NCBI GenBank assembly: GCA_964355175.1
Contig: CAYHBZ010000002.1
Location: 396,537-460,536, forward strand
Reading direction: 5' to 3'
Source of the DNA: an uncultured Gammaproteobacteria bacterium
GTDB lineage: Bacteria > Patescibacteriota > Patescibacteriia > Magasanikbacterales > GWA2-37-8
Length of the DNA stretch: 64,000 bases
A model generated the notes under the pieces. That model was not told the origin of the DNA. It saw only the letters and a program-made list of their open reading frames with translations, and searched no databases. The position numbers were made by a program, and so were the translations under genes. Positions 8,246 through 58,947 of this stretch are shown here, piece by piece (within the stretch, counting starts at the first letter, position 1; the number at the start of each line of letters is the position of its first letter).

Positions 8246-8779
8246 ATGACCACCGCAAAGCACCCCGATCCGAACCATCCGGACCCCGGCACCACCGAAG
8301 AGCCCGTCGTCGACAAGGCGAAGGGCGACACGGTGGTGACCACGACGACCACCACGAGCGTTTCGTCGGCCGAGCCCATCAAGGCAAAGCCGGTGGCGAC
8401 CACCGACACCACGGCTGGCAAGACGGCGACCCAAGAGCCCAAGAAGGGTGGCTGGCCGCTCGGGACCATCGCCGGAGCTGTCGTGCTCGGTCTTCTGCTC
8501 CTCGGCGGCGTCTACTGGTTCGGCAGCCACAACAGCAGCACGCCGGTCGTCCCGCCCATCGCGGTCGCCGGTTGCTGTCTTCCCCAGGCCACCGTCGCGA
8601 GCCCCTGCTGCCCGCAACCGCCGGCTCCGCCCCCGCCGCCCGCCCCCGTCGTCAAGAAGAAGACGGTCGGCGAGTGCGTCGCCCAAGCCGTCGCCGGCAT
8701 GGAGGTCGCCCATGAGGACGACCGCCTCGCCGCGATGGACGGCGCCCGCGAAGAATGCGAGGAAGAATACGGCAAGTAG
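8246..8779 (+). CDS. GC-rich cassette A: bitopic membrane protein (Thr/Pro-rich N-terminal region, one TM, Cys/Pro-rich C-terminal region), no recognised family
   Basis: AGGAG 6 nt before ATG; strong G/C at codon position 3 in this frame only; TM WPLGTIAGAVVLGLLLLGGVYWF preceded by KKGG. Confidence 0.65.
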   Translation: MTTAKHPDPNHPDPGTTEEPVVDKAKGDTVVTTTTTTSVSSAEPIKAKPVATTDTTAGKTATQEPKKGGWPLGTIAGAVVLGLLLLGGVYWFGSHNSSTPVVPPIAVAGCCLPQATVASPCCPQPPAPPPPPAPVVKKKTVGECVAQAVAGMEVAHEDDRLAAMDGAREECEEEYGK

Positions 8780-8952: not shown

Positions 8953-9196
8953 TAAAACCAACAAAATTTTTTCCCACCTAAAAAGAATTATTATTTATAG
9001 TAATTCACTCTCGGTGGGAAAAAGTGTGGCGGAAATTCCGTTGCATAGCCTCCGACAGAGTCCCAATTGGGGCAAGTGCCCCGCGTGCGGGCTACTCTGT
9101 TACAGCGACCATTTCTGGGAAGCTGACCGAACGGCCCGCACGGCCGGTGTTCCAGTGTCTTGGTTTCGTGGGGTGAAAGTCCCCTGGAGTACAGCG

Positions 9197-10192
9197 ATGA
9201 ACAAGAATTCGAAGTTCCACAACCTCAGCATCTTGCTGACCCTGGCCATGGGGATCATGGTCGCTTCCAATTCCTACGCCGACGTGGCCACGGCTCGCGC
9301 TCGTGCCGAAGCCGCTCGTAGCCAGGCCAATCGGGCTGAGGTGAAAGCGGTCGACGCACAGACTGCGGCCAACGCGGCCAAGACCGGCGCCACCAACGCC
9401 CAGACCGCGGCCGATCAGGCCAAGGTCGAAGCGACCGCGGTGGGCACCAAGGCGGCCACTGACCTCGCTACGGCGATCCGCGCCCTCAACGGTGCGGTCG
9501 GCGGTGCGCGTGCGGCAGCGGTCAACGGTGATCGTCAGCTCGAGCGCAAGTTCAAGGCGGAGGCCGAGCGCCTTCAGACCGAGATCGAAGCGCTCAAGAA
9601 GCGGGCGCAGCACGAGTGTGCGGCGTTCGATGACAAGGGCAGCCAGGCGGCCTGTCTGACCATGCTCGAGAAGATCAACGCCAAGAACGGCGAAGTCACC
9701 ATGCACGGGCAAGACAAGGACACGGAGGTCCAGATCGCCAAGGTGGGACAGCAGTCCAAGGTGGTCCAGGAGATCTTCGACAACGCAAACCAAAACATGG
9801 ACGCCATCAAGGCGATCCAAATGGGTTGCGTCAACCAGGCCTTCGTCGACAAGGACGGCGTCAGCAAGAGCAAGTGGGAATGCCCCAAGGACATGAAGCG
9901 CGGCCCGCAGTTGCGCTACGAGCTCACGAACGTCTCGAAGTACGGCGACCACAGCGTCGTCATCGAGCCGGCCGAGAGCGGTGGCAATTCCAAGTGGGGC
10001 AAAGTGCTCGGCTTCGGCGCCATCGGTGGTGCTGCTGGCGGTGCTCTTGGCTGGGCCTTCTTCCCGAACCATGAAACCATGGAAGATGGCAGCGTCATGC
10101 ACCGGAATTACACCGGTCTCGTCGCTGGCACGGCCATCGGTTTCGTGGTCACGGCGGTGGCCACCCTGGTCATCGAAGAACTGACCGAATAG
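9197..10192 (+). CDS. GC-rich cassette B: secreted Ala-rich coiled-coil protein with C-terminal Gly-rich hydrophobic anchors, no recognised family
   Basis: GGAG 7 nt before ATG 9197; signal-peptide-like MNKNSKFHNLSILLTLAMGIMVASNSYA; GC3-biased frame; 9014-9196 treated as 5' leader. Confidence 0.65.
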   Translation: MNKNSKFHNLSILLTLAMGIMVASNSYADVATARARAEAARSQANRAEVKAVDAQTAANAAKTGATNAQTAADQAKVEATAVGTKAATDLATAIRALNGAVGGARAAAVNGDRQLERKFKAEAERLQTEIEALKKRAQHECAAFDDKGSQAACLTMLEKINAKNGEVTMHGQDKDTEVQIAKVGQQSKVVQEIFDNANQNMDAIKAIQMGCVNQAFVDKDGVSKSKWECPKDMKRGPQLRYELTNVSKYGDHSVVIEPAESGGNSKWGKVLGFGAIGGAAGGALGWAFFPNHETMEDGSVMHRNYTGLVAGTAIGFVVTAVATLVIEELTE

Positions 10193-10641: not shown

Positions 10642-12063
10642 ATGCGTAACCGGTTTCAATTGGTCGCGACTCTCGCGATGGCGGCTGCAGCCTGTGCAGC
10701 GTGTGGTGTCATCGAACATCCGGCCGATGCGGTCGTGATCGTGGTCGAAAAAGACGCCAGCAGCCAGGATGTCCAGCAGGACAACGGTCCGGCGCAGCAG
10801 CCCGAGATCGCGCAGACGGCCGACATCGCGCAGGACAACGGTCCGGCGACGAAGCCTGAGTGCGCGGTCGACAGCGACTGCGACGACAAGAACCCCTGCA
10901 CGACGGACGTCTGCGGCAGCAACGCCTGCGTCCACGTGGCCAACTCGGTCTCGTGCGACGACGGCAACGCCTGCACCAGCAACGACAAGTGCGGCTCCGA
11001 GAAGTGCTCGGGTGACCAGAAGGTCTGCGACGACAACAACCCCTGCACCGACGACGGCTGCGTCAGCGACGGCACCTGCCTGCACGGCGTCAACATCGTC
11101 AACTGCGACGACAGCGACGCCTGCACGGAAAAGGACCAGTGCGCCAACGGTAAGTGCGTCGGCCAGGTGAAGTCGTGCGACGACAAGGACAACTGCACGA
11201 CGGAATCGTGTGACAAGCTCAACGGGTGCTCGTCCACTCCGGTCGTCTGCCAGGACGCCGGGGATCCGTGCACGACGGAATCGTGCGACAAGGCAACGGG
11301 CAAGTGCTCGTCCACCACCGACTGCGACGACAAGGACGTCACCACGTTGGATGCCTGTGAACCGCTGCTCGAGACCGTGGGAATGGAGAAATGCCTCCAC
11401 ATCAAGATGCAGACCAAGTGCACCAAGAATGCGGATTGCGACGAGGACGGCGATCCGTGTTCGTTCGAGTTCTGTTCCCAGATCGGCTACTGCGCCAGCA
11501 AGTGGAAGTTGTGCGATGACGGAGACTACTGCACCCAGGACGAATGCGTCCCTCAGGCCGACTACGCCTGGTGCAAGAGCACTCAATACTCATGCGACGA
11601 CTACAACGCCTGCACGCTGGACTCCTGCACCAACGGCTACTGCCAACACAAGGGCAACGCCGCCATGTGCGACGACAAGGACTCCACCACCGCCGACTCG
11701 TGCAACCCTTCCCAGGGCTGCGTCAACACGCCGATTCCTCAACCCGGCGTGCCGAGCTCGACTCCTCCCTCGAATCCCTCGACCTGTGCGGCCTGGGGAG
11801 CGTGGATTTACTTGCCCACGGGCAACTGGCGCGGCGGCTATGACCTGACCGGTTCGTCTTCGCAAGAAACGGACCTGACAATCAGCGTCGACCAGTGGTA
11901 CGGCTTCAGCAACGCTCATTCTGTGTGGGCGTGGCTCAAGCCGTGGGGCAGTGCGGTACCGGCAAGCGTCAAGTGCACTGATCGGTGTGGTGTGGTCTTC
12001 CCCGCGAAGATCAGTGCCATGGCGGGTGGCTTCATCGCCATCTGCAGCACCGACCAGAAGTAG
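10642..12063 (+). CDS. GC-rich cassette C: Cys-rich repeat lipoprotein/secreted protein (tandem C-D-D-x-N-x-C-T-x-D-x-C units, Dicty_CTDC-like)
   Basis: GGAGG 5 nt before ATG; N-terminus MRNRFQLVATLAMAAAACAAC (signal/lipobox-like); 12 or more repeats of ~24 aa with spaced Cys; unrelated ~120-aa Trp-rich C-terminal domain. Confidence 0.75.
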   Translation: MRNRFQLVATLAMAAAACAACGVIEHPADAVVIVVEKDASSQDVQQDNGPAQQPEIAQTADIAQDNGPATKPECAVDSDCDDKNPCTTDVCGSNACVHVANSVSCDDGNACTSNDKCGSEKCSGDQKVCDDNNPCTDDGCVSDGTCLHGVNIVNCDDSDACTEKDQCANGKCVGQVKSCDDKDNCTTESCDKLNGCSSTPVVCQDAGDPCTTESCDKATGKCSSTTDCDDKDVTTLDACEPLLETVGMEKCLHIKMQTKCTKNADCDEDGDPCSFEFCSQIGYCASKWKLCDDGDYCTQDECVPQADYAWCKSTQYSCDDYNACTLDSCTNGYCQHKGNAAMCDDKDSTTADSCNPSQGCVNTPIPQPGVPSSTPPSNPSTCAAWGAWIYLPTGNWRGGYDLTGSSSQETDLTISVDQWYGFSNAHSVWAWLKPWGSAVPASVKCTDRCGVVFPAKISAMAGGFIAICSTDQK

Positions 12064-18154: not shown

Positions 18155-18306
18155 AATAAGTCGTTTGTTCTTTATTTGGCAGGATAATTTTGGATTAAAA
18201 TTTTTAATTCAGAGTTATCGTGCCAACTTTCTCAATGCGTGTCGGCGAAATGCGTCGATATGTAAAGAGAGGTGCGAGAGCCTACATGGTAGGCAGGAGA
18301 GCAGGA

Positions 18307-19122
18307 ATGGCAGACAGCAGCCACAACGTTACTCAGGTCGGCATCACCGTCGGGCCGCCCAACGCCGATCTCGGCAGTGTGGTGGTTCGTCAGGAGGCGG
18401 CCAGGGCGGATCTCAATGAGCGGCGTACGCATCTCAGCTTGGTTGTCAAGCCCTCGGTCGATGATCTGGTCGCGCGGCTGAATGTCGAGCGGCAGGAAGT
18501 CGACCGCATCGGCGCGCTGGTCGATGCGGTAGAGCGCGAACAGGCGAAGAGCGTCAAGCACTTCGAATCGACGCTCGGCGGGCAGGCGCGGCTCTGGAAG
18601 AAGGGTTTCGACGCCCATGAGCGCTCGATCTTCTGGGTCAAGCTCCTCGGCGTCGTCGGCCTGGTCCTGGTCGGTATCGTCCTGGTCCTGAACCTGTCGT
18701 CCTCCTCGGACATCTCCACGGCCAAGTCGGAAGCCATCTCGGCCAAGACCACCGTGGCGGAGTTCAAGAAGGCCACCCAAGGCGAGGTCGTCAAGATCAA
18801 GAAGAGGCTCGATGCCAACAAGCTCGACATGGATCAGCTCAAGGATCAGATCAAGGTCGTCGGGCTCAAGGCTGACAAGAGCGTCGTCACTCGCATGGGC
18901 GAAGAGCTCAAAGAAGCCAACATCGAGCAGGACGGTCGGATCCAGGACATCGCCACCGCGATCATGGGCAAGGCCGACATAGCCGATCTCAAGAGCGTGA
19001 GGAGCGCAGTCGCGCAGGTTCGCCGGGCCAACGGCAAGGTGAACACGAAGATGACCAGGCTCGAAGCTCAGGTCCTGGAGCTCAAGGCCCAACTCCAGGC
19101 CCAACAGCCCAAGACCATGTAG
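18307..19122 (+). CDS. GC-rich cassette D: bitopic membrane protein with extracytoplasmic coiled coil, no recognised family
   Basis: AGGAGA 6 nt before ATG 18307; TM WVKLLGVVGLVLVGIVLVLNL; heptad-like K/D/L-rich C-terminal half; GC3-biased frame. Confidence 0.65.
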   Translation: MADSSHNVTQVGITVGPPNADLGSVVVRQEAARADLNERRTHLSLVVKPSVDDLVARLNVERQEVDRIGALVDAVEREQAKSVKHFESTLGGQARLWKKGFDAHERSIFWVKLLGVVGLVLVGIVLVLNLSSSSDISTAKSEAISAKTTVAEFKKATQGEVVKIKKRLDANKLDMDQLKDQIKVVGLKADKSVVTRMGEELKEANIEQDGRIQDIATAIMGKADIADLKSVRSAVAQVRRANGKVNTKMTRLEAQVLELKAQLQAQQPKTM

Positions 19123-19359: not shown

Positions 19360-19504
19360 AGTTCATTAGATTGTTCTTTTTAATCAATTCGCGCGACAAT
19401 TATAAATTAAAATTTTTCAATTTATAATCGTCGTGCGAATTTCAGTTTATCAATGACGGCCAGTCGGAGGTTCCGATTGGTTCAGCTCTTTCTGCGAGGT
19501 GAGC

Positions 19505-20074
19505 ATGGTTGATTTCAATCCCCCGGATCCAGTGGATCCAGAGAAGAAAAAGAAGCCTTCGTCGGCTGTGGAGACAGACCACAATTGGGAAGCCTGGGCC
19601 AACGATAATTCGGTCGATGACGGCAGTCATCCTCTGCCTGGTGAAGCCGAATACGTCGGACGGTCCGACCTTCCCATGACACGGGCACAGAAAGAGCGCA
19701 TCGCCGCGATCGTAGTCGGTACGGCCTTCCTGGTGTTGGTTTTCTTTGTCATCAATTTCGCTATCGGCAACAAGCTCAAGCATTCTGAAGCGGCCTCGTC
19801 CAACGAGGCTGGCAAGCAGAGCGCTCAGGCAAGTGCCGAAGTAGAATTGAAGGCAGAAGAAGCCGCCTCAGAGCAGGATCATACGGTCTCGCTGCCGGAT
19901 CACGCTTCGCAGGAAGATGATCTGGACGATGCTCGCGCGACCATCAAGGTCGTCGGTTTGGAGAAACGGCGCGTTCGAGATCCAGAGATGGAGCGGATCG
20001 CCGCAACCATCAAGATCGTGCCACTGCGTGTCAGTCCTGTCGCGGTACCGCTTCCAGCGGCCGCTACTCAGTAG
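19505..20074 (+). CDS. GC-rich cassette E: bitopic membrane protein with acidic C-terminal region, no recognised family
   Basis: GAGGTG just before ATG 19505; TM IAAIVVGTAFLVLVFFVINFAIG preceded by RAQKER; GC3-biased frame. Confidence 0.6.
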   Translation: MVDFNPPDPVDPEKKKKPSSAVETDHNWEAWANDNSVDDGSHPLPGEAEYVGRSDLPMTRAQKERIAAIVVGTAFLVLVFFVINFAIGNKLKHSEAASSNEAGKQSAQASAEVELKAEEAASEQDHTVSLPDHASQEDDLDDARATIKVVGLEKRRVRDPEMERIAATIKIVPLRVSPVAVPLPAAATQ

Positions 20075-44682: not shown

Positions 44683-45738
44683 ATGAAAAAAAGTAAAAAA
44701 ACAGCAGTGTTCTTTCTAGTAGCCCTTTCGTTCGCGCTTGGGCTTGTCGGTCCACTGGCCGCATTGGCTGGTCCAACCAAGATTGAACTTTTGTCGGCCG
44801 ATAATTTTGCCATCCTTGCCGGTTCCACCATTACCAACATTGGATCGAGCATCGTTGGCGGAGATCTTGGCTTGAGCCCGGGTACCGCGGTCACCGGGTT
44901 TCCACCGGGAATTGTGAACGGAACCCAGCATGTGGCTAATGCCGTTGCCGCTCAGGCGCAGTTAGATGTCACTACCGCTTATACGACAGCGCTTGGATTT
45001 GCGTCTATTTCCACTATACCAACCGAACTTGGCGGAACGACTAAAACCCCTGGTGTTTATGATTCCGCGGCTGGGACTTTTGGAATCACTGGTACACTAA
45101 CGCTCGACGGTGAGGGTGATGCGAACGCGGTGTTTATTTTTAAAACCGCTACCACTTTTATCATGGCCGCAGGGAGTAAGGTGGTTCTTGTGAACGGCGC
45201 GCAAGCGTGTAACATCGTTTGGCAAGTAGGTAGTTCAGCGACGCTTGGAACAAATTCTACGTTACAAGGCAGTATTCTAGCGTTTACTTCCGCCACGCTT
45301 AATACTGGCGCACATGTCCAAGGGCGAGTATTAGCTCGCAATGGCGCCGTTACTTTAGATTCTAGTACTGTTACCAAAGCTACTTGTGCTGTGCCTGTTG
45401 TGGAACCAATTGTGGTATCAGCGCCTCAGCCCACATCGACTCCTAATTTTTCGACATCCACTCCTACATCCGTGATAATACCATCGTTTTCAACTTCAAC
45501 ATCAATGCCAGCGCCCAGCACAACACCATTGGTATTCTCAGCCACTGTGACAGCTTCGCCTACACTGAATGTTGCTCCGCTTGTGTCTACATTTATTCCT
45601 GATTTTCCCAATACCGGTCTTTCTCCACAAGAGACAAGTATGTGGTGGGGTAGTCGATTGTTTGTCGCTAGCGCGCTTTTGATTTTGACTTTATTGTTGG
45701 TAATCTTAAAAAAACGTTCATCATCTTTGGGTGTTTAA
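44683..45738 (+). CDS. ice-binding-like (DUF3494) surface protein with sortase sorting signal
   Basis: Signal peptide; FAILAGSTITNIGSSIVGGDLGLSPGTAVTGFPPG motif; C-terminal FPNTG plus hydrophobic helix plus KKR. Confidence 0.75.
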   Translation: MKKSKKTAVFFLVALSFALGLVGPLAALAGPTKIELLSADNFAILAGSTITNIGSSIVGGDLGLSPGTAVTGFPPGIVNGTQHVANAVAAQAQLDVTTAYTTALGFASISTIPTELGGTTKTPGVYDSAAGTFGITGTLTLDGEGDANAVFIFKTATTFIMAAGSKVVLVNGAQACNIVWQVGSSATLGTNSTLQGSILAFTSATLNTGAHVQGRVLARNGAVTLDSSTVTKATCAVPVVEPIVVSAPQPTSTPNFSTSTPTSVIIPSFSTSTSMPAPSTTPLVFSATVTASPTLNVAPLVSTFIPDFPNTGLSPQETSMWWGSRLFVASALLILTLLLVILKKRSSSLGV

Positions 45739-45739
45739 T

Positions 45740-46342
45740 ATGTCTAGTCGTGTAAAGATGAGTCTCGTTGCCTTAGTTGTTTTTTTCTTCATTCTCGGCC
45801 TGTCTGTCTCTGAACTCTATACGAAGGTACCTTTGTCCGCAAATACGCTTGCAACCTCGACGCAGTTGATAGTCCCATCAGAGCAAACGCTTCTAGGCTT
45901 GCCGATACATCTCACGATCCCACGGATCCATGTCGATGCCTCCCTTGAATATGTTGGCCTCACAGCGACCGGGGCAGTGGATGTGCCAACAGTGCCAGCG
46001 AATCCAGCCTGGTACTCGCTGGGGCCGCGTCCGGGGCAAACTGGCAGTGCGGTGATTGTCGGGCATTTCGGCTGGAAAAAAGGGATGCCAGCGGTTTTTG
46101 ATGATTTGTCTACTCTGCGTAAGGGCGATAAGTTGTATGTCAAAAATGAACACGGAGCGACTACTACTTTTATAGTACGCGAGTTGCGAAGCTATAGCGC
46201 GCATGACAGTGCTGTGGAGGTATTTAGCTCTAGTGATGGGAAAGCGCATCTGAATTTGATCACCTGTGAAGGAACTTGGAATAAAATTGAGGAGAGTTAT
46301 TCAAAGCGACTGGTGGTATTTGCTGATTTAGAAGATAGATAA
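45740..46342 (+). CDS. sortase (class E/F-like)
   Basis: N-terminal TM; VIVGH His, LITCEG (TLxTC-type Cys) and C-terminal Arg; overlaps end of its likely substrate gene. Confidence 0.8.
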   Translation: MSSRVKMSLVALVVFFFILGLSVSELYTKVPLSANTLATSTQLIVPSEQTLLGLPIHLTIPRIHVDASLEYVGLTATGAVDVPTVPANPAWYSLGPRPGQTGSAVIVGHFGWKKGMPAVFDDLSTLRKGDKLYVKNEHGATTTFIVRELRSYSAHDSAVEVFSSSDGKAHLNLITCEGTWNKIEESYSKRLVVFADLEDR

Positions 46343-56121: not shown

Positions 56122-56206
56122 GGAGAGGTCGCATAGTGGCCGAGTGCGCCGCCTTGGAAAGGCGGTATACCGCAAGGTATCGAGGGTTCAAATCCCTCTC
56201 TCTCCG
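56122..56206 (+). tRNA. tRNA-Ser (anticodon GGA), long variable arm, CCA not encoded
   Basis: Hand-folded: acceptor GGAGAGG/TCTCTCC, anticodon stem CCGCC/GGCGG with loop TTGGAAA, 16-nt variable arm, T-arm GAGGG-TTCAAAT-CCCTC. Confidence 0.85.
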
Positions 56207-56244
56207 CTGGGTCACGCTTATATGAGCAAAGGGTTCATATTCCA

Positions 56245-56276
56245 AAAACATCTCGACTAAGTCGGGATGTTTTTTT
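56245..56276 (+). terminator. intrinsic terminator after tRNA-Ser
   Basis: AAAACATCTCGACTAAGTCGGGATGTTTTTTT. Confidence 0.65.
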
Positions 56277-56405: not shown

Positions 56406-56774
56406 ATGGCAGATTCTCTGCCGTTCCAAGAAGATCTGCGTAAGCCATTCCACATCTCAGTCTGCGACCGGATCGCTCTCTGCCTCACGGCAATGAGCAT
56501 CTCCGGTGGAAGGGAGATCCCGCTCGGCATCCAGGAGGTGACCAGAGACCTGGATCTCTTGGACAAGACCAAGGTCCCGGCCAAGGAACTGCCCAGTGTG
56601 ACAAAGGCCCTCTACGGCCTGCGGGTGATGTACGGCCCTCTCATGCCGACGGTTTCTCAGCGCCTGACCCAATCGATCGACCTCTTGGTCGTGTATCAAG
56701 AGGAGCTGGCCGAGGATGGCAAGCTGGATCGCGACCTCGTGTGGTTGCCGCCTGTCGTCGACCCGGTAGCCTAG
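56406..56774 (+). CDS. GC-rich cassette G: 122-aa soluble protein, no recognised family
   Basis: AGGAGG 5 nt before ATG; GC3-biased frame; TTGACA at 56331. Confidence 0.6.
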   Translation: MADSLPFQEDLRKPFHISVCDRIALCLTAMSISGGREIPLGIQEVTRDLDLLDKTKVPAKELPSVTKALYGLRVMYGPLMPTVSQRLTQSIDLLVVYQEELAEDGKLDRDLVWLPPVVDPVA

Positions 56775-56900
56775 CTGGTCTGTAGATTTTCACCCGGTCT
56801 TCGTCTATGTCCGGGTTGAGAGGTGTTCATACACCACTCCGTCCCGACTTAGTCGAGACGTGAATCACCGCAAGGTAGTGACGAGAACATCAGACATTCA

Positions 56901-56970
56901 GACTGTTCGCGCTCACTTAAGATTATAACTTGATTATAGTTTTAAGTGACGAACAGTCTTTTTGTTTTTT
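56901..56970 (+). terminator. long hairpin terminator of cassette G
   Basis: AGACTGTTCG..TCACTTAA-(AT-rich apex)-TTAAGTGACGAACAGTCT followed by TTTTTGTTTTTT. Confidence 0.6.
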
Positions 56971-57041
56971 CTAAAGGATATTTTATAGATACGGATGGCA
57001 ATACTTTTGGTTTGCATCAGCCGGATGAAAAGGCGGCATAA

Positions 57042-57105: not shown

Positions 57106-57327
57106 ATGAGTGTAAAATATCGTCCGGGAACCGGCAGGGAGCCGCGCATCTTCCATGAGAGTATGGGCTTGCCCAGCCGGACGGTCGTTCAGATCGACTG
57201 GTGGACCTGTCCGAACCTGATCGTGAAGGATGAGCAGTTCGGAAATCGCGAACTCTGTGACTTTCAGAACCCGTCTTGGGAACACAAGTGCCAGGGTTGC
57301 GGTGCCGATCGTCCCGATAAGTCCTAG
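57106..57327 (+). CDS. GC-rich cassette H: 73-aa protein with RanBP2-like zinc-ribbon (WWTC...C-x3-N-x6-C-x2-C-GA-x-RP)
   Basis: TGGAG 7 nt before ATG 57106; GC3-biased frame; C-terminal motif shared with cassette I. Confidence 0.6.
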   Translation: MSVKYRPGTGREPRIFHESMGLPSRTVVQIDWWTCPNLIVKDEQFGNRELCDFQNPSWEHKCQGCGADRPDKS

Positions 57328-57335
57328 GAGGACTC

Positions 57336-57362
57336 ATGCGTATCCGCGCACCCCCGCCTTAA
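57336..57362 (+). CDS. putative arrest-type mini-ORF MRIRAPPP*
   Basis: Stop of cassette H embedded in TAGGAGGA; ATG 3 nt after the SD; 8 codons ending RAPPP-stop; homologous to 58764..58793. Confidence 0.4.
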   Translation: MRIRAPPP

Positions 57363-57387
57363 AAAAGGCACAGGGAAGTAGCGGAAT

Positions 57388-57453
57388 AAAAACCGCCGCC
57401 AACCTGTTTTGTTTCCAAATACAATTGGAGATGGGATAGGCTGGCGGTTTTTT
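57388..57453 (+). terminator. long hairpin terminator of cassette H
   Basis: AAAACCGCCGCCAACCTGTTTTGTTTCCAA...TTGGAGATGGGATAGGCTGGCGGTTTTTT. Confidence 0.6.
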
Positions 57454-57455
57454 GT

Positions 57456-57484
57456 TTGACTTCCAGAGAGGGATTTGATAGTTT
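57456..57484 (+). promoter_or_regulatory. sigma70-like promoter of cassette I
   Basis: TTGACT, 17-nt spacer, TAGTTT; -35 abuts the terminator T-run. Confidence 0.45.
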
Positions 57485-57523
57485 TGATGGGCGCAAATTT
57501 CGCGCCAACCAGTGAGGAACACA

Positions 57524-57925
57524 ATGACTTGTGGTCAACGTCGCAAACTGCGTCTTGATATGATCGTGGTCAAGGGCTGGAACGGTCGTCGCCTCTCCAA
57601 GGGGTGTCGGAAGTACATACGCCGTCACCTGCCTCTGGAATGGCAGGCGATCGAGGATCGTGCTCAACAGGAGCGTGAGCTGGTGCGGCAGATCGAGCTG
57701 CACAAGGCGGCTGCTCGCAACAAGCAGACGGCTACGCGGCCGAGCTTCTCCGCGCCGTCGTTCGCTACGGCGAAGCCTGCACCGGTGCCGGTCAAGCCTC
57801 CGCGGGATCCATGGTGGACCTGCAAGGCCGAAACCAAGGGAGGTTATTTCTCCGGCGCCTGCAACGAGCTGAACTACAGTAATACCTCCTGCACCTACTG
57901 TGGTGCGGCTCGCCCGGCAGCGTGA
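57524..57925 (+). CDS. GC-rich cassette I: 133-aa basic protein with C-terminal RanBP2-like zinc-ribbon
   Basis: GAGGA 5 nt before ATG 57524; C-terminus PWWTC..(11)..C-NEL-N-YSNTS-C-TY-C-GAARP, paralogous to cassette H tail. Confidence 0.6.
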   Translation: MTCGQRRKLRLDMIVVKGWNGRRLSKGCRKYIRRHLPLEWQAIEDRAQQERELVRQIELHKAAARNKQTATRPSFSAPSFATAKPAPVPVKPPRDPWWTCKAETKGGYFSGACNELNYSNTSCTYCGAARPAA

Positions 57926-57931
57926 GGAATC

Positions 57932-57958
57932 ATGCACTACTCCACCGGACCGCCTTGA
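57932..57958 (+). CDS. putative arrest-type mini-ORF MHYSTGPP*
   Basis: Stop of cassette I embedded in TGAGGA; ATG 3 nt after; 8 codons ending GPP-stop. Confidence 0.35.
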   Translation: MHYSTGPP

Positions 57959-57988: not shown

Positions 57989-58053
57989 CATCGACCACCA
58001 AACTGCTTTGTATGAAAATTTTTTATATAGAGCAGAGTGGTCGATGTTTTTTT
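57989..58053 (+). terminator. long hairpin terminator of cassette I
   Basis: CATCGACCACCAAACTGCTTTGTAT...ATATAGAGCAGAGTGGTCGATGTTTTTTT. Confidence 0.6.
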
Positions 58054-58064
58054 ATTTGAAATAC

Positions 58065-58093
58065 TTGACAAAAGCTCTATTTTTGTCTATAAT
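58065..58093 (+). promoter_or_regulatory. consensus sigma70 promoter of cassette J
   Basis: TTGACA, 17-nt spacer, TATAAT. Confidence 0.6.
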
Positions 58094-58197: not shown

Positions 58198-58746
58198 ATG
58201 TTGGAAATCATTTTGGAACCGAAGCTCAAGAACAAGTTCCTGACCGCTCGGGTCAAGGCGCATTGCGGGGTCATGACATGGTCGTTTTGCACCGCTGAAG
58301 GCGGTGTGGCGATCATCGAAGCGTTCGTCCGCGAACGCGTCTGGGGCTGGCAGGAAACTCGTCCGCTCTGCCGCCAGATGGAAGCGACTTTCCCCAAGGA
58401 TGCCAGCAAGTTGGCCGCCTGGCTCAACATGTTCGAGTCCTCCTCGTGCGATGTGGCCGTTCAGCCCATCCATCTCGTGGATCAAGCCGGCGCTTCCCTC
58501 GCTATCAGTGGCAACCAGCTGCATGATGGTGTGGTCGCTACGATCGGTACGGCCGTCTGCATGCTGGATCACTACCTCGTTCGCGGGGTGTTGCGCAACG
58601 GCGACTGCATCTCCGCGACGCAGCAGATGCTCCAGGCTGGCATGACCGACGTCATTTCGGAAAAGGCGTTTCGTGCTTTGACCGGTGGCATTCCGCTGTC
58701 CGGTTTCAACGAGTACGACTACCGTCGGATGGTCGGTCAACTCTAG
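58198..58746 (+). CDS. GC-rich cassette J: 182-aa soluble Cys-containing protein, no recognised family
   Basis: GGGGG 4 nt before ATG; clear GC3-biased frame. Confidence 0.65.
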   Translation: MLEIILEPKLKNKFLTARVKAHCGVMTWSFCTAEGGVAIIEAFVRERVWGWQETRPLCRQMEATFPKDASKLAAWLNMFESSSCDVAVQPIHLVDQAGASLAISGNQLHDGVVATIGTAVCMLDHYLVRGVLRNGDCISATQQMLQAGMTDVISEKAFRALTGGIPLSGFNEYDYRRMVGQL

Positions 58747-58763: not shown

Positions 58764-58793
58764 ATGGTTTCTATCCGTGCTCCGCCCCGATAA
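58764..58793 (+). CDS. putative arrest-type mini-ORF MVSIRAPPR*
   Basis: AGAGGAGGAG then 3 nt then ATG, 17 nt after cassette J stop; 9 codons containing IRAPP. Confidence 0.4.
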   Translation: MVSIRAPPR

Positions 58794-58824: not shown

Positions 58825-58888
58825 AAGCCGCGCACCAACCTATTTTGTTTCTAAATTTTTGGAAATAGAATAGGGTGCGTGGCTTTTG
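58825..58888 (+). terminator. long hairpin terminator of cassette J
   Basis: AAAGCCGCGCACCAACCTATTTTGTTTCTAAAT...GGAAATAGAATAGGGTGCGTGGCTTTTGTTTT; homologous to 57388-57453. Confidence 0.6.
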
Positions 58889-58947
58889 TTTTCCCCTATA
58901 CAAAACCTCATTTTTTGTGTAGGATAAGGGTTGATAACTTAATCAAT

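Follow-up and report, generated by a model that had tools for sequence, protein, structure and literature searches.

The locus studied here raises the question of what kind of module forms the cysteine-rich C-terminal tails of two neighboring small proteins. Both are encoded on the plus strand of a 64,000-nt stretch of contig CAYHBZ010000002.1, in the following called the window, and their genes are referred to as H (57106-57327, 73 aa, exactly four Cys, isoelectric point (pI) 6.7, i.e., acidic to neutral) and I (57524-57925, 133 aa, basic with a pI of 10.15). An earlier note on this DNA had proposed that both proteins end in a zinc ribbon of the RanBP2 type with an unusually long first spacer. 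Based on the sequence comparisons reported below, we consider a RanBP2-like zinc ribbon with a split first knuckle to be the best explanation of the two tails, with a probability of roughly 0.55. That is, H and I would be two small cytoplasmic proteins with a common, ancient and lineage-restricted C-terminal module of about 40 residues, which would most likely be a single Zn(Cys)4 zinc ribbon of RanBP2-finger type.

The tails comprise residues 31-70 of H (57196..57315, plus strand, DWWTC...CGADRP) and residues 95-131 of I (57806..57916, plus strand, DPWWTC...CGAARP), and both were found in the sequence exactly as quoted by the earlier note. The H motif reads W-T-C-x15-C-x3-N-x6-C-x2-C-G-A-D-R-P with Cys codons at 57208, 57256, 57289 and 57298, the I motif W-T-C-x12-C-x3-N-x5-C-x2-C-G-A-A-R-P with Cys codons at 57821, 57860, 57890 and 57899. 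The first two Cys are separated by 15 residues in H and by 12 in I, i.e., the spacer is indeed long, and these two lengths replace the range of 11-16 residues given before. On the plus strand, the insertion between Cys1 and Cys2 is PNLIVKDEQFGNREL in H (57211..57255) and KAETKGGYFSGA in I (57824..57859). The former has the same length in all four H-type proteins discussed below and follows the pattern x3-[VI]-V-x-[DE]-E...E-[PL]. Over all six frames of the window, the expressions W.C.{2,25}C.{3}N.{4,8}C..C and C..CG[AS].[RK]P each yield exactly two matches, both in the open reading frames (ORFs) of H and I only.

With regard to the homology of the tails, we compared the results of three methods. 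Pairwise BLASTP of H against I yields E = 9e-4. When a hidden Markov model (HMM) of the four H-type proteins is run against the 1426 six-frame segments that the window yields, I (E = 0.02) comes directly behind H itself, and the next segment follows at E >= 1.4. Aligning the H family with the I family, hhalign reports a probability of 92.4% (E = 5.2e-7). The four Cys and the Asn are matched to their counterparts at the cost of two gaps, one of 3 residues within the loop and one of 1 residue ahead of Cys3, which is the Cys register proposed previously. MAFFT alignments of the tails introduce a single long gap before Cys3 and misalign Cys2 of the I-type, such that the register is taken from hhalign only. 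Since BLASTP, HMM and hhalign agree, we regard the likeness of the tails as significant, real but old, and the two tails as homologous. At the DNA level, they have only an identical run of 11 nt in common, i.e., the W-W-T-C codons.

We also searched for further homologues. An exhaustive HMMER search with a tail profile against 1.84 billion representative proteins resulted in seven proteins in total; the profile was built on the MAFFT alignment with its Cys2 misregister, which may have cost sensitivity. Three of the seven are H-type (P0004, P0005 and P0009, the first with 70% identity to H) and one is I-type (P0002). The others are a bacterial triple zinc-ribbon protein (P0006), a classical RanBP2-finger repeat protein (P0008) and an unrelated Cys-repeat protein (P0007). 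With H and I included, the whole family comprises four H-type and two I-type clusters. Word-index searches over 5.8 billion clusters returned for H and I only identical proteins and one relative of about 70% identity each. When the homologues are aligned, all six family members retain the four Cys, and the same applies to the Trp in front of C1, the Asn along with a Ser two positions past it, and the Gly that follows C4. Every H-type protein contains exactly four Cys, and the H-type proteins are acidic (pI 4.6-6.7). None of the family members carries an annotation; the closest named relative of I is a protein from a 'Candidatus Magasanikbacteria' metagenome-assembled genome. The homologues that were located lie within syntenic loci or have DNA-homologous flanks. 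No further loci were found in GTDB genomes and IMG/VR using the H family and the downstream gene J as queries, and DNA pattern scans for the flank modules described below re-found only the related loci L001 and L010.

Next to each other, the tails and the RanBP2-type consensus W-x-C-x2-4-C-x3-N-x6-C-x2-C (PMC6384913) agree in most positions. The initial W-x-C is present in all six family members (as W-T-C, W-V-C or W-N-C), and both the C-x3-N after the second Cys and the second pair C-x2-C are invariant (6/6). The N-x6-C spacing is found in the four H-type proteins, while I shows N-x5-C and P0002 N-x4-C. Individual RanBP2 fingers (RBM10 2mxv, Nup153 3gj5, TRABID/ZRANB1 NZF 5af6, RBM5, FUS 6g99) furthermore resemble the tails in the trailing basic residue followed by Pro and in the size of the module, which is about 30 residues outside the insertion. 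Beside the I-type spacing, the tails differ from these fingers in the first Cys pair, which is 2-4 residues apart in the latter, in a second Trp before C1 and in being a single C-terminal copy within a bacterium of the candidate phyla radiation (CPR). Ubiquitin-binding NZF fingers have T-F where the H-type proteins have D-F.

A likeness to RanBP2 fingers is also observed at the profile level. The native sequences of H, P0005 and P0009 score 17.6, 20.4 and 12.9 bits with PF00641, given a gathering score of 27, and match profile positions 10-30 only, i.e., for native H the zf-RanBP profile search gives a sub-threshold match to the second half of the profile. With the C1-C2 loop shortened to two residues in silico, the matches of the four H-type tails span profile positions 3-30 at scores of 30.3, 26.7, 29.6 and 21.6 bits, and no other family matches any of these tails better than PF00641. 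The residues that score after excision (Trp, Cys, Asn, Gly, Arg-Pro) are all native. The top twelve PDB matches of a trimmed profile of all six tails are without exception RanBP2-type fingers (E down to 2.8e-4), with the fingers of RBM10, Nup153, TRABID/ZRANB1, RBM5, FUS and MDM2 at the top. The untrimmed H profile reaches a best E of 0.34, and the native H tail finds only the FUS finger (E = 0.69). Against a small alignment of RanBP2 fingers, hhalign reports 93.8% for the native H-type (Cys2 to Arg-Pro segment) and 61.6% for the I-type. In addition, the exhaustive search recovered the classical RanBP2 repeat protein P0008 at E = 3.2e-4. The RanBP2 likeness asserted at the outset thus holds insofar as this is the best match among known families and the difference lies in the first Cys pair; it has to be qualified in that native sequences stay below the threshold and I is much weaker.

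Several observations weigh against assigning the tails to this type. The C-x(2,4)-C spacing of the first pair is found in no family member, with 15 residues in H, P0004, P0005 and P0009 and 12 in I and P0002. None of the native sequences reaches the Pfam gathering score, native I has no match to PF00641, and the loop-excised I-type tails score only 13.4 (I) and 13.0 bits. Moreover, the excision was guided by the hypothesis it tests, and any sequence of the form W-x-C...C-x3-N...C-x2-C gains score once the spacing is set. The AlphaFold2 models of H (from a 2-sequence alignment) and I have an overall pLDDT (predicted local distance difference test) of 43 and 58, respectively. Since both tails are below 50, confidence is too poor to inspect the Cys geometry, and a Foldseek search of the PDB with both models gave no usable match. 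Nor was a functional context found, i.e., the neighboring genes G and J match no family in Pfam, PHROGs, NCBIfam or PADLOC. Finally, it is a mark of RNA-binding RanBP2 fingers that the conserved Asn is immediately followed by an aromatic side chain (position 17; PMC6384913). This position is Pro in the H-type proteins, Tyr in I and Phe in P0002, and the latter two are without Arg at positions 19 and 20. The acidity of the H-type proteins together with Pro at position 17 argues against RNA binding by H.

Since the first pair does not show the defining C-x(2,4)-C spacing, we keep the tails out of PF00641. We regard them as a derived variant outside this family that would most likely work like a member. 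For I alone, the tie to the RanBP2 family rests mainly on its likeness to H.

In the ribbon as we picture it, the usual tight first knuckle (C-x2-4-C) would be opened by a beta-hairpin of 12-15 residues, such that Cys1 and Cys2 would be located at the base of a longer first hairpin, and the second half of the module, C-x3-N-x5/6-C-x2-C-G-A-x-R-P, would be canonical. In the two low-confidence AlphaFold2 models, independently of each other, the insertion contains a hairpin of two strands (residues 39-41 and 48-50 for H, residues 103-105 and 108-110 for I), as would be expected if the insertion merely lengthens the first beta-hairpin of the ribbon. The four invariant Cys and the family resemblance suggest that the tails bind zinc; the hairpin geometry and any binding function are to be read as equally putative. 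The ribbon may provide a small surface for a protein or single-stranded nucleic-acid partner, on which the conserved Trp, the Asn and the inserted hairpin would be exposed, and I might add a polyanion-binding helix to this surface.

The strongest alternative, to which we assign a clearly lower but still appreciable probability, derives the tails from generic bacterial or archaeal zinc ribbons (Zn_Ribbon_1 or DZR, CPxCG...FCxxCGAxL). RanBP2-like would then denote similarity rather than ancestry, and the likeness would be owed to the spacing and a few structural residues common to all such ribbons. The exhaustive search points in this direction, as its E-value is better for the bacterial triple zinc-ribbon protein P0006 (4.1e-7) than for P0008. 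The repeats of P0006 show C-x3-N-P-x5-C-x2-C-G-A as well, and the protein itself matches PF00641 at 44.8 bits. The C-G-A past Cys4 is typical of the bacterial type, and the host is a bacterium. In general, such ribbons (PF13240, PF12773; P0006 is an example) have in common with H and I the four Cys in two pairs and a second half of the form C-x3-N-P-x5/6-C-x2-C-G-A, and they often form short terminal tails on otherwise unrelated prokaryotic proteins. On the other hand, Zn_Ribbon_1 is matched by neither the native nor the trimmed tails of H and I, and DZR only by the trimmed tail of P0005 with 18.2 bits (cutoff 27.3), compared to 29.6 bits for PF00641. For native H and I, the search with zinc-ribbon profiles gave no match to Zn_Ribbon_1 (PF13240) or DZR (PF12773) at E <= 10. 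The tails are without the CPxCG first knuckle of the generic ribbons and show the RanBP2 features W-x-C and R-P, i.e., Trp-Trp before C1 and Arg-Pro in place of the usual hydrophobic residue after C-G-A. By description, H also fits the one-domain zinc-finger micro-proteins of Haloferax volcanii (PMC6562870), which have about 70 residues or fewer and a sole four-Cys module, and whose partners are generally unknown. These differ by two C(P)xCG-like motifs of normal knuckle spacing, and the likeness is one of description only, with no sequence relationship claimed.

A RanBP2-type ribbon, like a generic one, presumes that the four Cys form one zinc site. It is improbable, in our view, that they are instead paired in two disulfides, involved in binding a different cofactor or targets of modification, which would render the ribbon likeness superficial. 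The distance of 12-15 residues within the first Cys pair, unlike any knuckle, and the lack of a confident AlphaFold2 fold speak for such a reading, and the variable N-terminus in front of a Cys-rich C-terminus loosely recalls precursors of peptide natural products. However, neither H nor I has a signal peptide or membrane segment, so that disulfides are unlikely in what would be cytoplasmic proteins. Furthermore, no modifying enzyme is encoded near H and I, and the RanBP2 signature residues other than Cys (Trp, Asn, Gly, Arg-Pro) are conserved too.

Zinc ribbon or not, H and I are real, conserved coding genes. H has a GGAG Shine-Dalgarno sequence 7 nt upstream of its ATG at 57106, and I has GAGGA 5 nt upstream of its ATG at 57524. 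The GC content of third codon positions (GC3) is 0.69 in both genes, compared to 0.33-0.43 in host genes. The plus-strand frames of the cassettes show the coding pattern GC1 > GC2 < GC3 with GC3 values of 0.69-0.77, and the overlapping antisense ORFs are without this pattern. Identical or related copies of both ORFs are found in several independent assemblies. Between I and its orthologue P0002 (69% identity), the ratio of nonsynonymous to synonymous substitution rates (dN/dS) is 0.36, and the differences (23/18/40 over the three codon positions) favor the third position. For the tail of H (residues 29-70), dN/dS is 0.15-0.22 with synonymous sites near saturation, and for residues 1-28 about 0.5-1.5 (noisy short-segment estimates), i.e., there is little constraint. 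As dN/dS is low in the tail only, H is essentially a tail with an unconstrained N-terminal extension. The tails are a rare, clade-restricted and selectively constrained four-Cys module. That H and I are not expressed at all, their ORFs being a by-product of stop-poor GC-rich DNA and the common motif a chance event, is very improbable: GC-rich stretches do carry long ORFs in several frames (e.g., 57359-57937 on the minus strand) and the differences between H and its homologue in locus L008 are nearly even over the codon positions of the whole gene (13/12/15), but the plus-strand GC3 pattern, the purifying selection on the tail despite near-saturated synonymous sites, the correctly spaced Shine-Dalgarno sequences, the fact that four to six lineages have kept these ORFs with every Cys at identities of 33-70% and the absence of the motif from the other 1424 six-frame segments all contradict it.

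Upstream of the tails, H and I have no similarity according to BLASTP, in agreement with the view that their N-terminal parts are unrelated. H-type N-termini have at most a weak H-E-S-x-G-L-P patch in common and are otherwise free to vary. In effect, H would be a stand-alone zinc-ribbon mini-protein with a freely evolving N-terminal extension. I begins with a basic helical region (residues 1-70, 57524..57733, plus strand, pI 11.2, 18 Lys and Arg), for which AlphaFold2 predicts helices at residues 3-16 and 26-70 with pLDDT values up to 92. No family match was obtained for this region in Pfam, NCBIfam, PHROG or PADLOC. Given its charge and the predicted long helix, one may reasonably guess that it binds nucleic acid. 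Behind it, residues 71-94 (57734..57805, plus strand) make up a linker rich in Pro, Ala and Ser that is modeled without secondary structure and at low pLDDT. In I, the ribbon would thus be tethered to a strongly basic long helix by a Pro/Ala linker.

The earlier note had taken this arrangement as a sign of domain shuffling within the cassette family. A common ancestry of the tails on different N-termini is plausible, and partial duplication or fusion could account for a single old module attached to two N-termini that are unrelated. A recent recombination event, in contrast, is not demonstrable because the tails share just 11 identical nt in a row.

H and I are part of one of several short islands of 55-70% GC within a genome of about 40% GC (roughly 8.0-12.2 kb, 18.1-20.1 kb and 56.3-58.8 kb of the window). 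The third island begins just 3' of a tRNA-Ser(GGA) gene (56122-56207), ends before a rhodanese-family gene and the Suf operon, and consists of four short plus-strand genes with AT-rich spacers between them: G (56406-56774, 122 aa), H, I and J (58198-58746, 182 aa, without a zinc-ribbon tail). None of the four has a meaningful match in the function libraries of PHROGs, NCBIfam and PADLOC. We rejected a non-coding RNA as an explanation of the GC-rich stretch, since Rfam reports only two tRNAs over the window and the codon-position signals favor coding. An integrative element at the tRNA-Ser gene was likewise rejected; the window holds no second copy of the tRNA 3'-end, and an integrase was not systematically searched for. 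We found no relevant literature on GC-rich islands in Magasanikbacteria or on bacterial zf-RanBP domains.

A comparison with related loci shows how this island varies. In L010 and L011, I is absent and the H-type gene is directly followed by the spacer that comes after I in the window, which makes I a presence/absence cassette. It may have been inserted beside H or deleted in the other lineages. The gene order is glyoxalase - H' - J' in L011, and in L010 H' is followed by an unrelated low-GC gene of 356 aa and of no known family and then by rhodanese. L008 carries a low-GC insertion of 1.3 kb (110-1450) between tRNA-Ser and the promoter of G. The locus is a hot spot of gene gain and loss and of indels. 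The L008 insertion contains an ORF of 98 aa and a gene related to 3-demethylubiquinone-9 3-methyltransferase (PF06983).

Regarding the inheritance of the cassettes, we compared synonymous substitution rates (dS) of the window with L001 and L010, for which synteny is the same. Relative to L001, I and J have dS values of 0.50-0.63, and the rhodanese gene, SufC and SufB have values of 0.69-0.86. Relative to L010, it is 1.12 for H and 1.0-1.2 for host genes. The GC3 of the cassettes is 0.67-0.75 in L001, L008 and L010 and 0.56 in L011, compared to 0.31-0.44 in neighboring genes. Since the cassettes diverged in step with the flanking host genes and yet retained their GC3, the pattern of the 56-59 kb island looks like vertical inheritance without amelioration.

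A second feature of the island concerns the 3' flanks of its genes. H, I and J are each followed, 6-17 nt past their stop codon, by a mini-ORF of 8-9 codons with a strong Shine-Dalgarno sequence, and among the 550 mini-ORFs of the window these are the only ones of such kind. On the plus strand, MRIRAPPP* (57336..57362) starts 8 nt past the H stop and MHYSTGPP* (57932..57958) 6 nt past the I stop, both behind GAGGA, and MVSIRAPPR* (58764-58793) comes after the J stop. The mini-ORFs are conserved in L001, L008, L009 and L010, partly via synonymous changes. For instance, the post-H copy reads MRIRAPPPY* with two synonymous changes in L008 and L009, and the post-I copy reads MRYSTGPP* in L001 and MKRSTGPP* in L010. 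Each mini-ORF overlaps a small hairpin and is followed by an imperfect hairpin of about 26 bp and a T-run. These long hairpins resemble intrinsic terminators and are located on the plus strand at 57393..57453 after H (folding z-score -5.5), at 57989..58053 after I and at about 58826-58890 after J; a member of the same hairpin family is found at about 150-217 of L011. They fold far better than shuffled sequences (z = -5.5 to -9.2), and compensatory changes are observed at 15/30 pairs among the nine copies compared. We conclude that they are probably intrinsic terminators that were reused as a module. The post-H and post-J flanks are identical in 91/111 nt (82%), such that the 3' module is a repeated unit in its own right; it is also present on J, i.e., on a gene that has no zinc-ribbon tail.

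RAPP is known as an arrest motif that is resistant to EF-P and depleted from bacterial proteomes (PMC10951233, PMC12992588). A resemblance to the RAPP-type arrest peptides ApdA, ApdP and CruR (PMC10951233, PMC12992588) is seen in the post-H and post-J mini-ORFs, which have I-R-A-P-P beside the stop codon, while the post-I copy has TGPP in place of RAPP or RGPP. Unlike the mini-ORFs, these arrest peptides are small proteins with a localization signal, either secretory or of the membrane, which range from tens to hundreds of residues in length and are encoded upstream of the gene that they regulate. The mini-ORFs, by comparison, have 8-9 codons, lie between a stop codon and a terminator, and the post-I copy is followed by a separate promoter. 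This promoter, upstream of J and right after the post-I terminator (58065-58093), is a perfect sigma-70 consensus (TTGACA-17-TATAAT). We also considered a classic leader-peptide attenuator. It is unlikely because, in a folding calculation with the mini-ORF masked as if covered by a ribosome, the terminator hairpin remains intact in all three flanks, i.e., it stays closed in silico.

It is conceivable, although we think it rather unlikely, that the island represents an undescribed kind of Magasanikbacteria cassette, i.e., GC-rich genes with a GC3 of about 0.7 that are vertically inherited within a genome of 40% GC without losing their high GC content, that combine a common 3' module with RAPP stalling and for which the ribbon is a dedicated component. 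On this speculative reading, the 3' module would start with a Shine-Dalgarno sequence and a mini-ORF of 8-9 codons whose end is RAPP or GPP, and continue with a small hairpin that covers the Pro codons and with the long terminator. The mini-ORFs might then, with similarly low probability, be the shortest known RAPP-type stalling elements and act on termination, mRNA stability or read-through to the next cassette and the Suf operon.

Beside these features, some further observations were made along the window. Directly upstream of the H promoter, 56946-57041 encodes the C-terminal remnant (...DGNTFGLHQPDEKAA*) of a VOC/glyoxalase-like gene, which is full-length upstream of the H homologue in L011 (732-1194, interrupted by Ns). 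Most of this gene appears to have been displaced by the G cassette together with the terminator of the latter. Gene G is bracketed by an inverted pair of 20 nt, i.e., part of a terminator-like palindrome 3' of tRNA-Ser (56248-56267) and its inverted copy just past G (56842-56861, 95% complementary). In the other two GC-rich islands, the gene at 10642-12063 encodes a lipoprotein-like, Cys-rich protein of 473 aa with four Dicty_CTDC repeats (PF00526, 87 bits), and the genes at 8246-8779, 9014-10192, 18220-19122 and 19499-20074 have signal or membrane segments and no Pfam family. Furthermore, at 44683-46342, where the GC content is slightly increased (0.48), the gene of a secreted, Ice_binding-like protein (PF11999, 203 bits) whose C-terminus carries a membrane anchor precedes a sortase gene (PF04203).

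With regard to the ribbon itself, the split knuckle would be new and the underlying fold is known, so that its interest is modest in itself. The maintenance of a high GC content and the modules of RAPP mini-ORF and terminator may be more surprising than the tails. The broader questions are thus why the cassettes stay GC-rich in an AT-rich genome and whether RAPP mini-ORFs of 8-9 codons stall ribosomes at gene ends. If the split-knuckle reading is true, a ribbon of the RanBP2 type tolerates a hairpin of 12-15 residues in its first knuckle. The spacing of this knuckle is normally taken as defining the RanBP2 family, and for this reason profile searches miss such split-knuckle domains. This would bear on the annotation of small CPR proteins, most of which are without an assigned function, and H would be a clean minimal case, in which selection acts on a ribbon of about 40 residues that stands alone.

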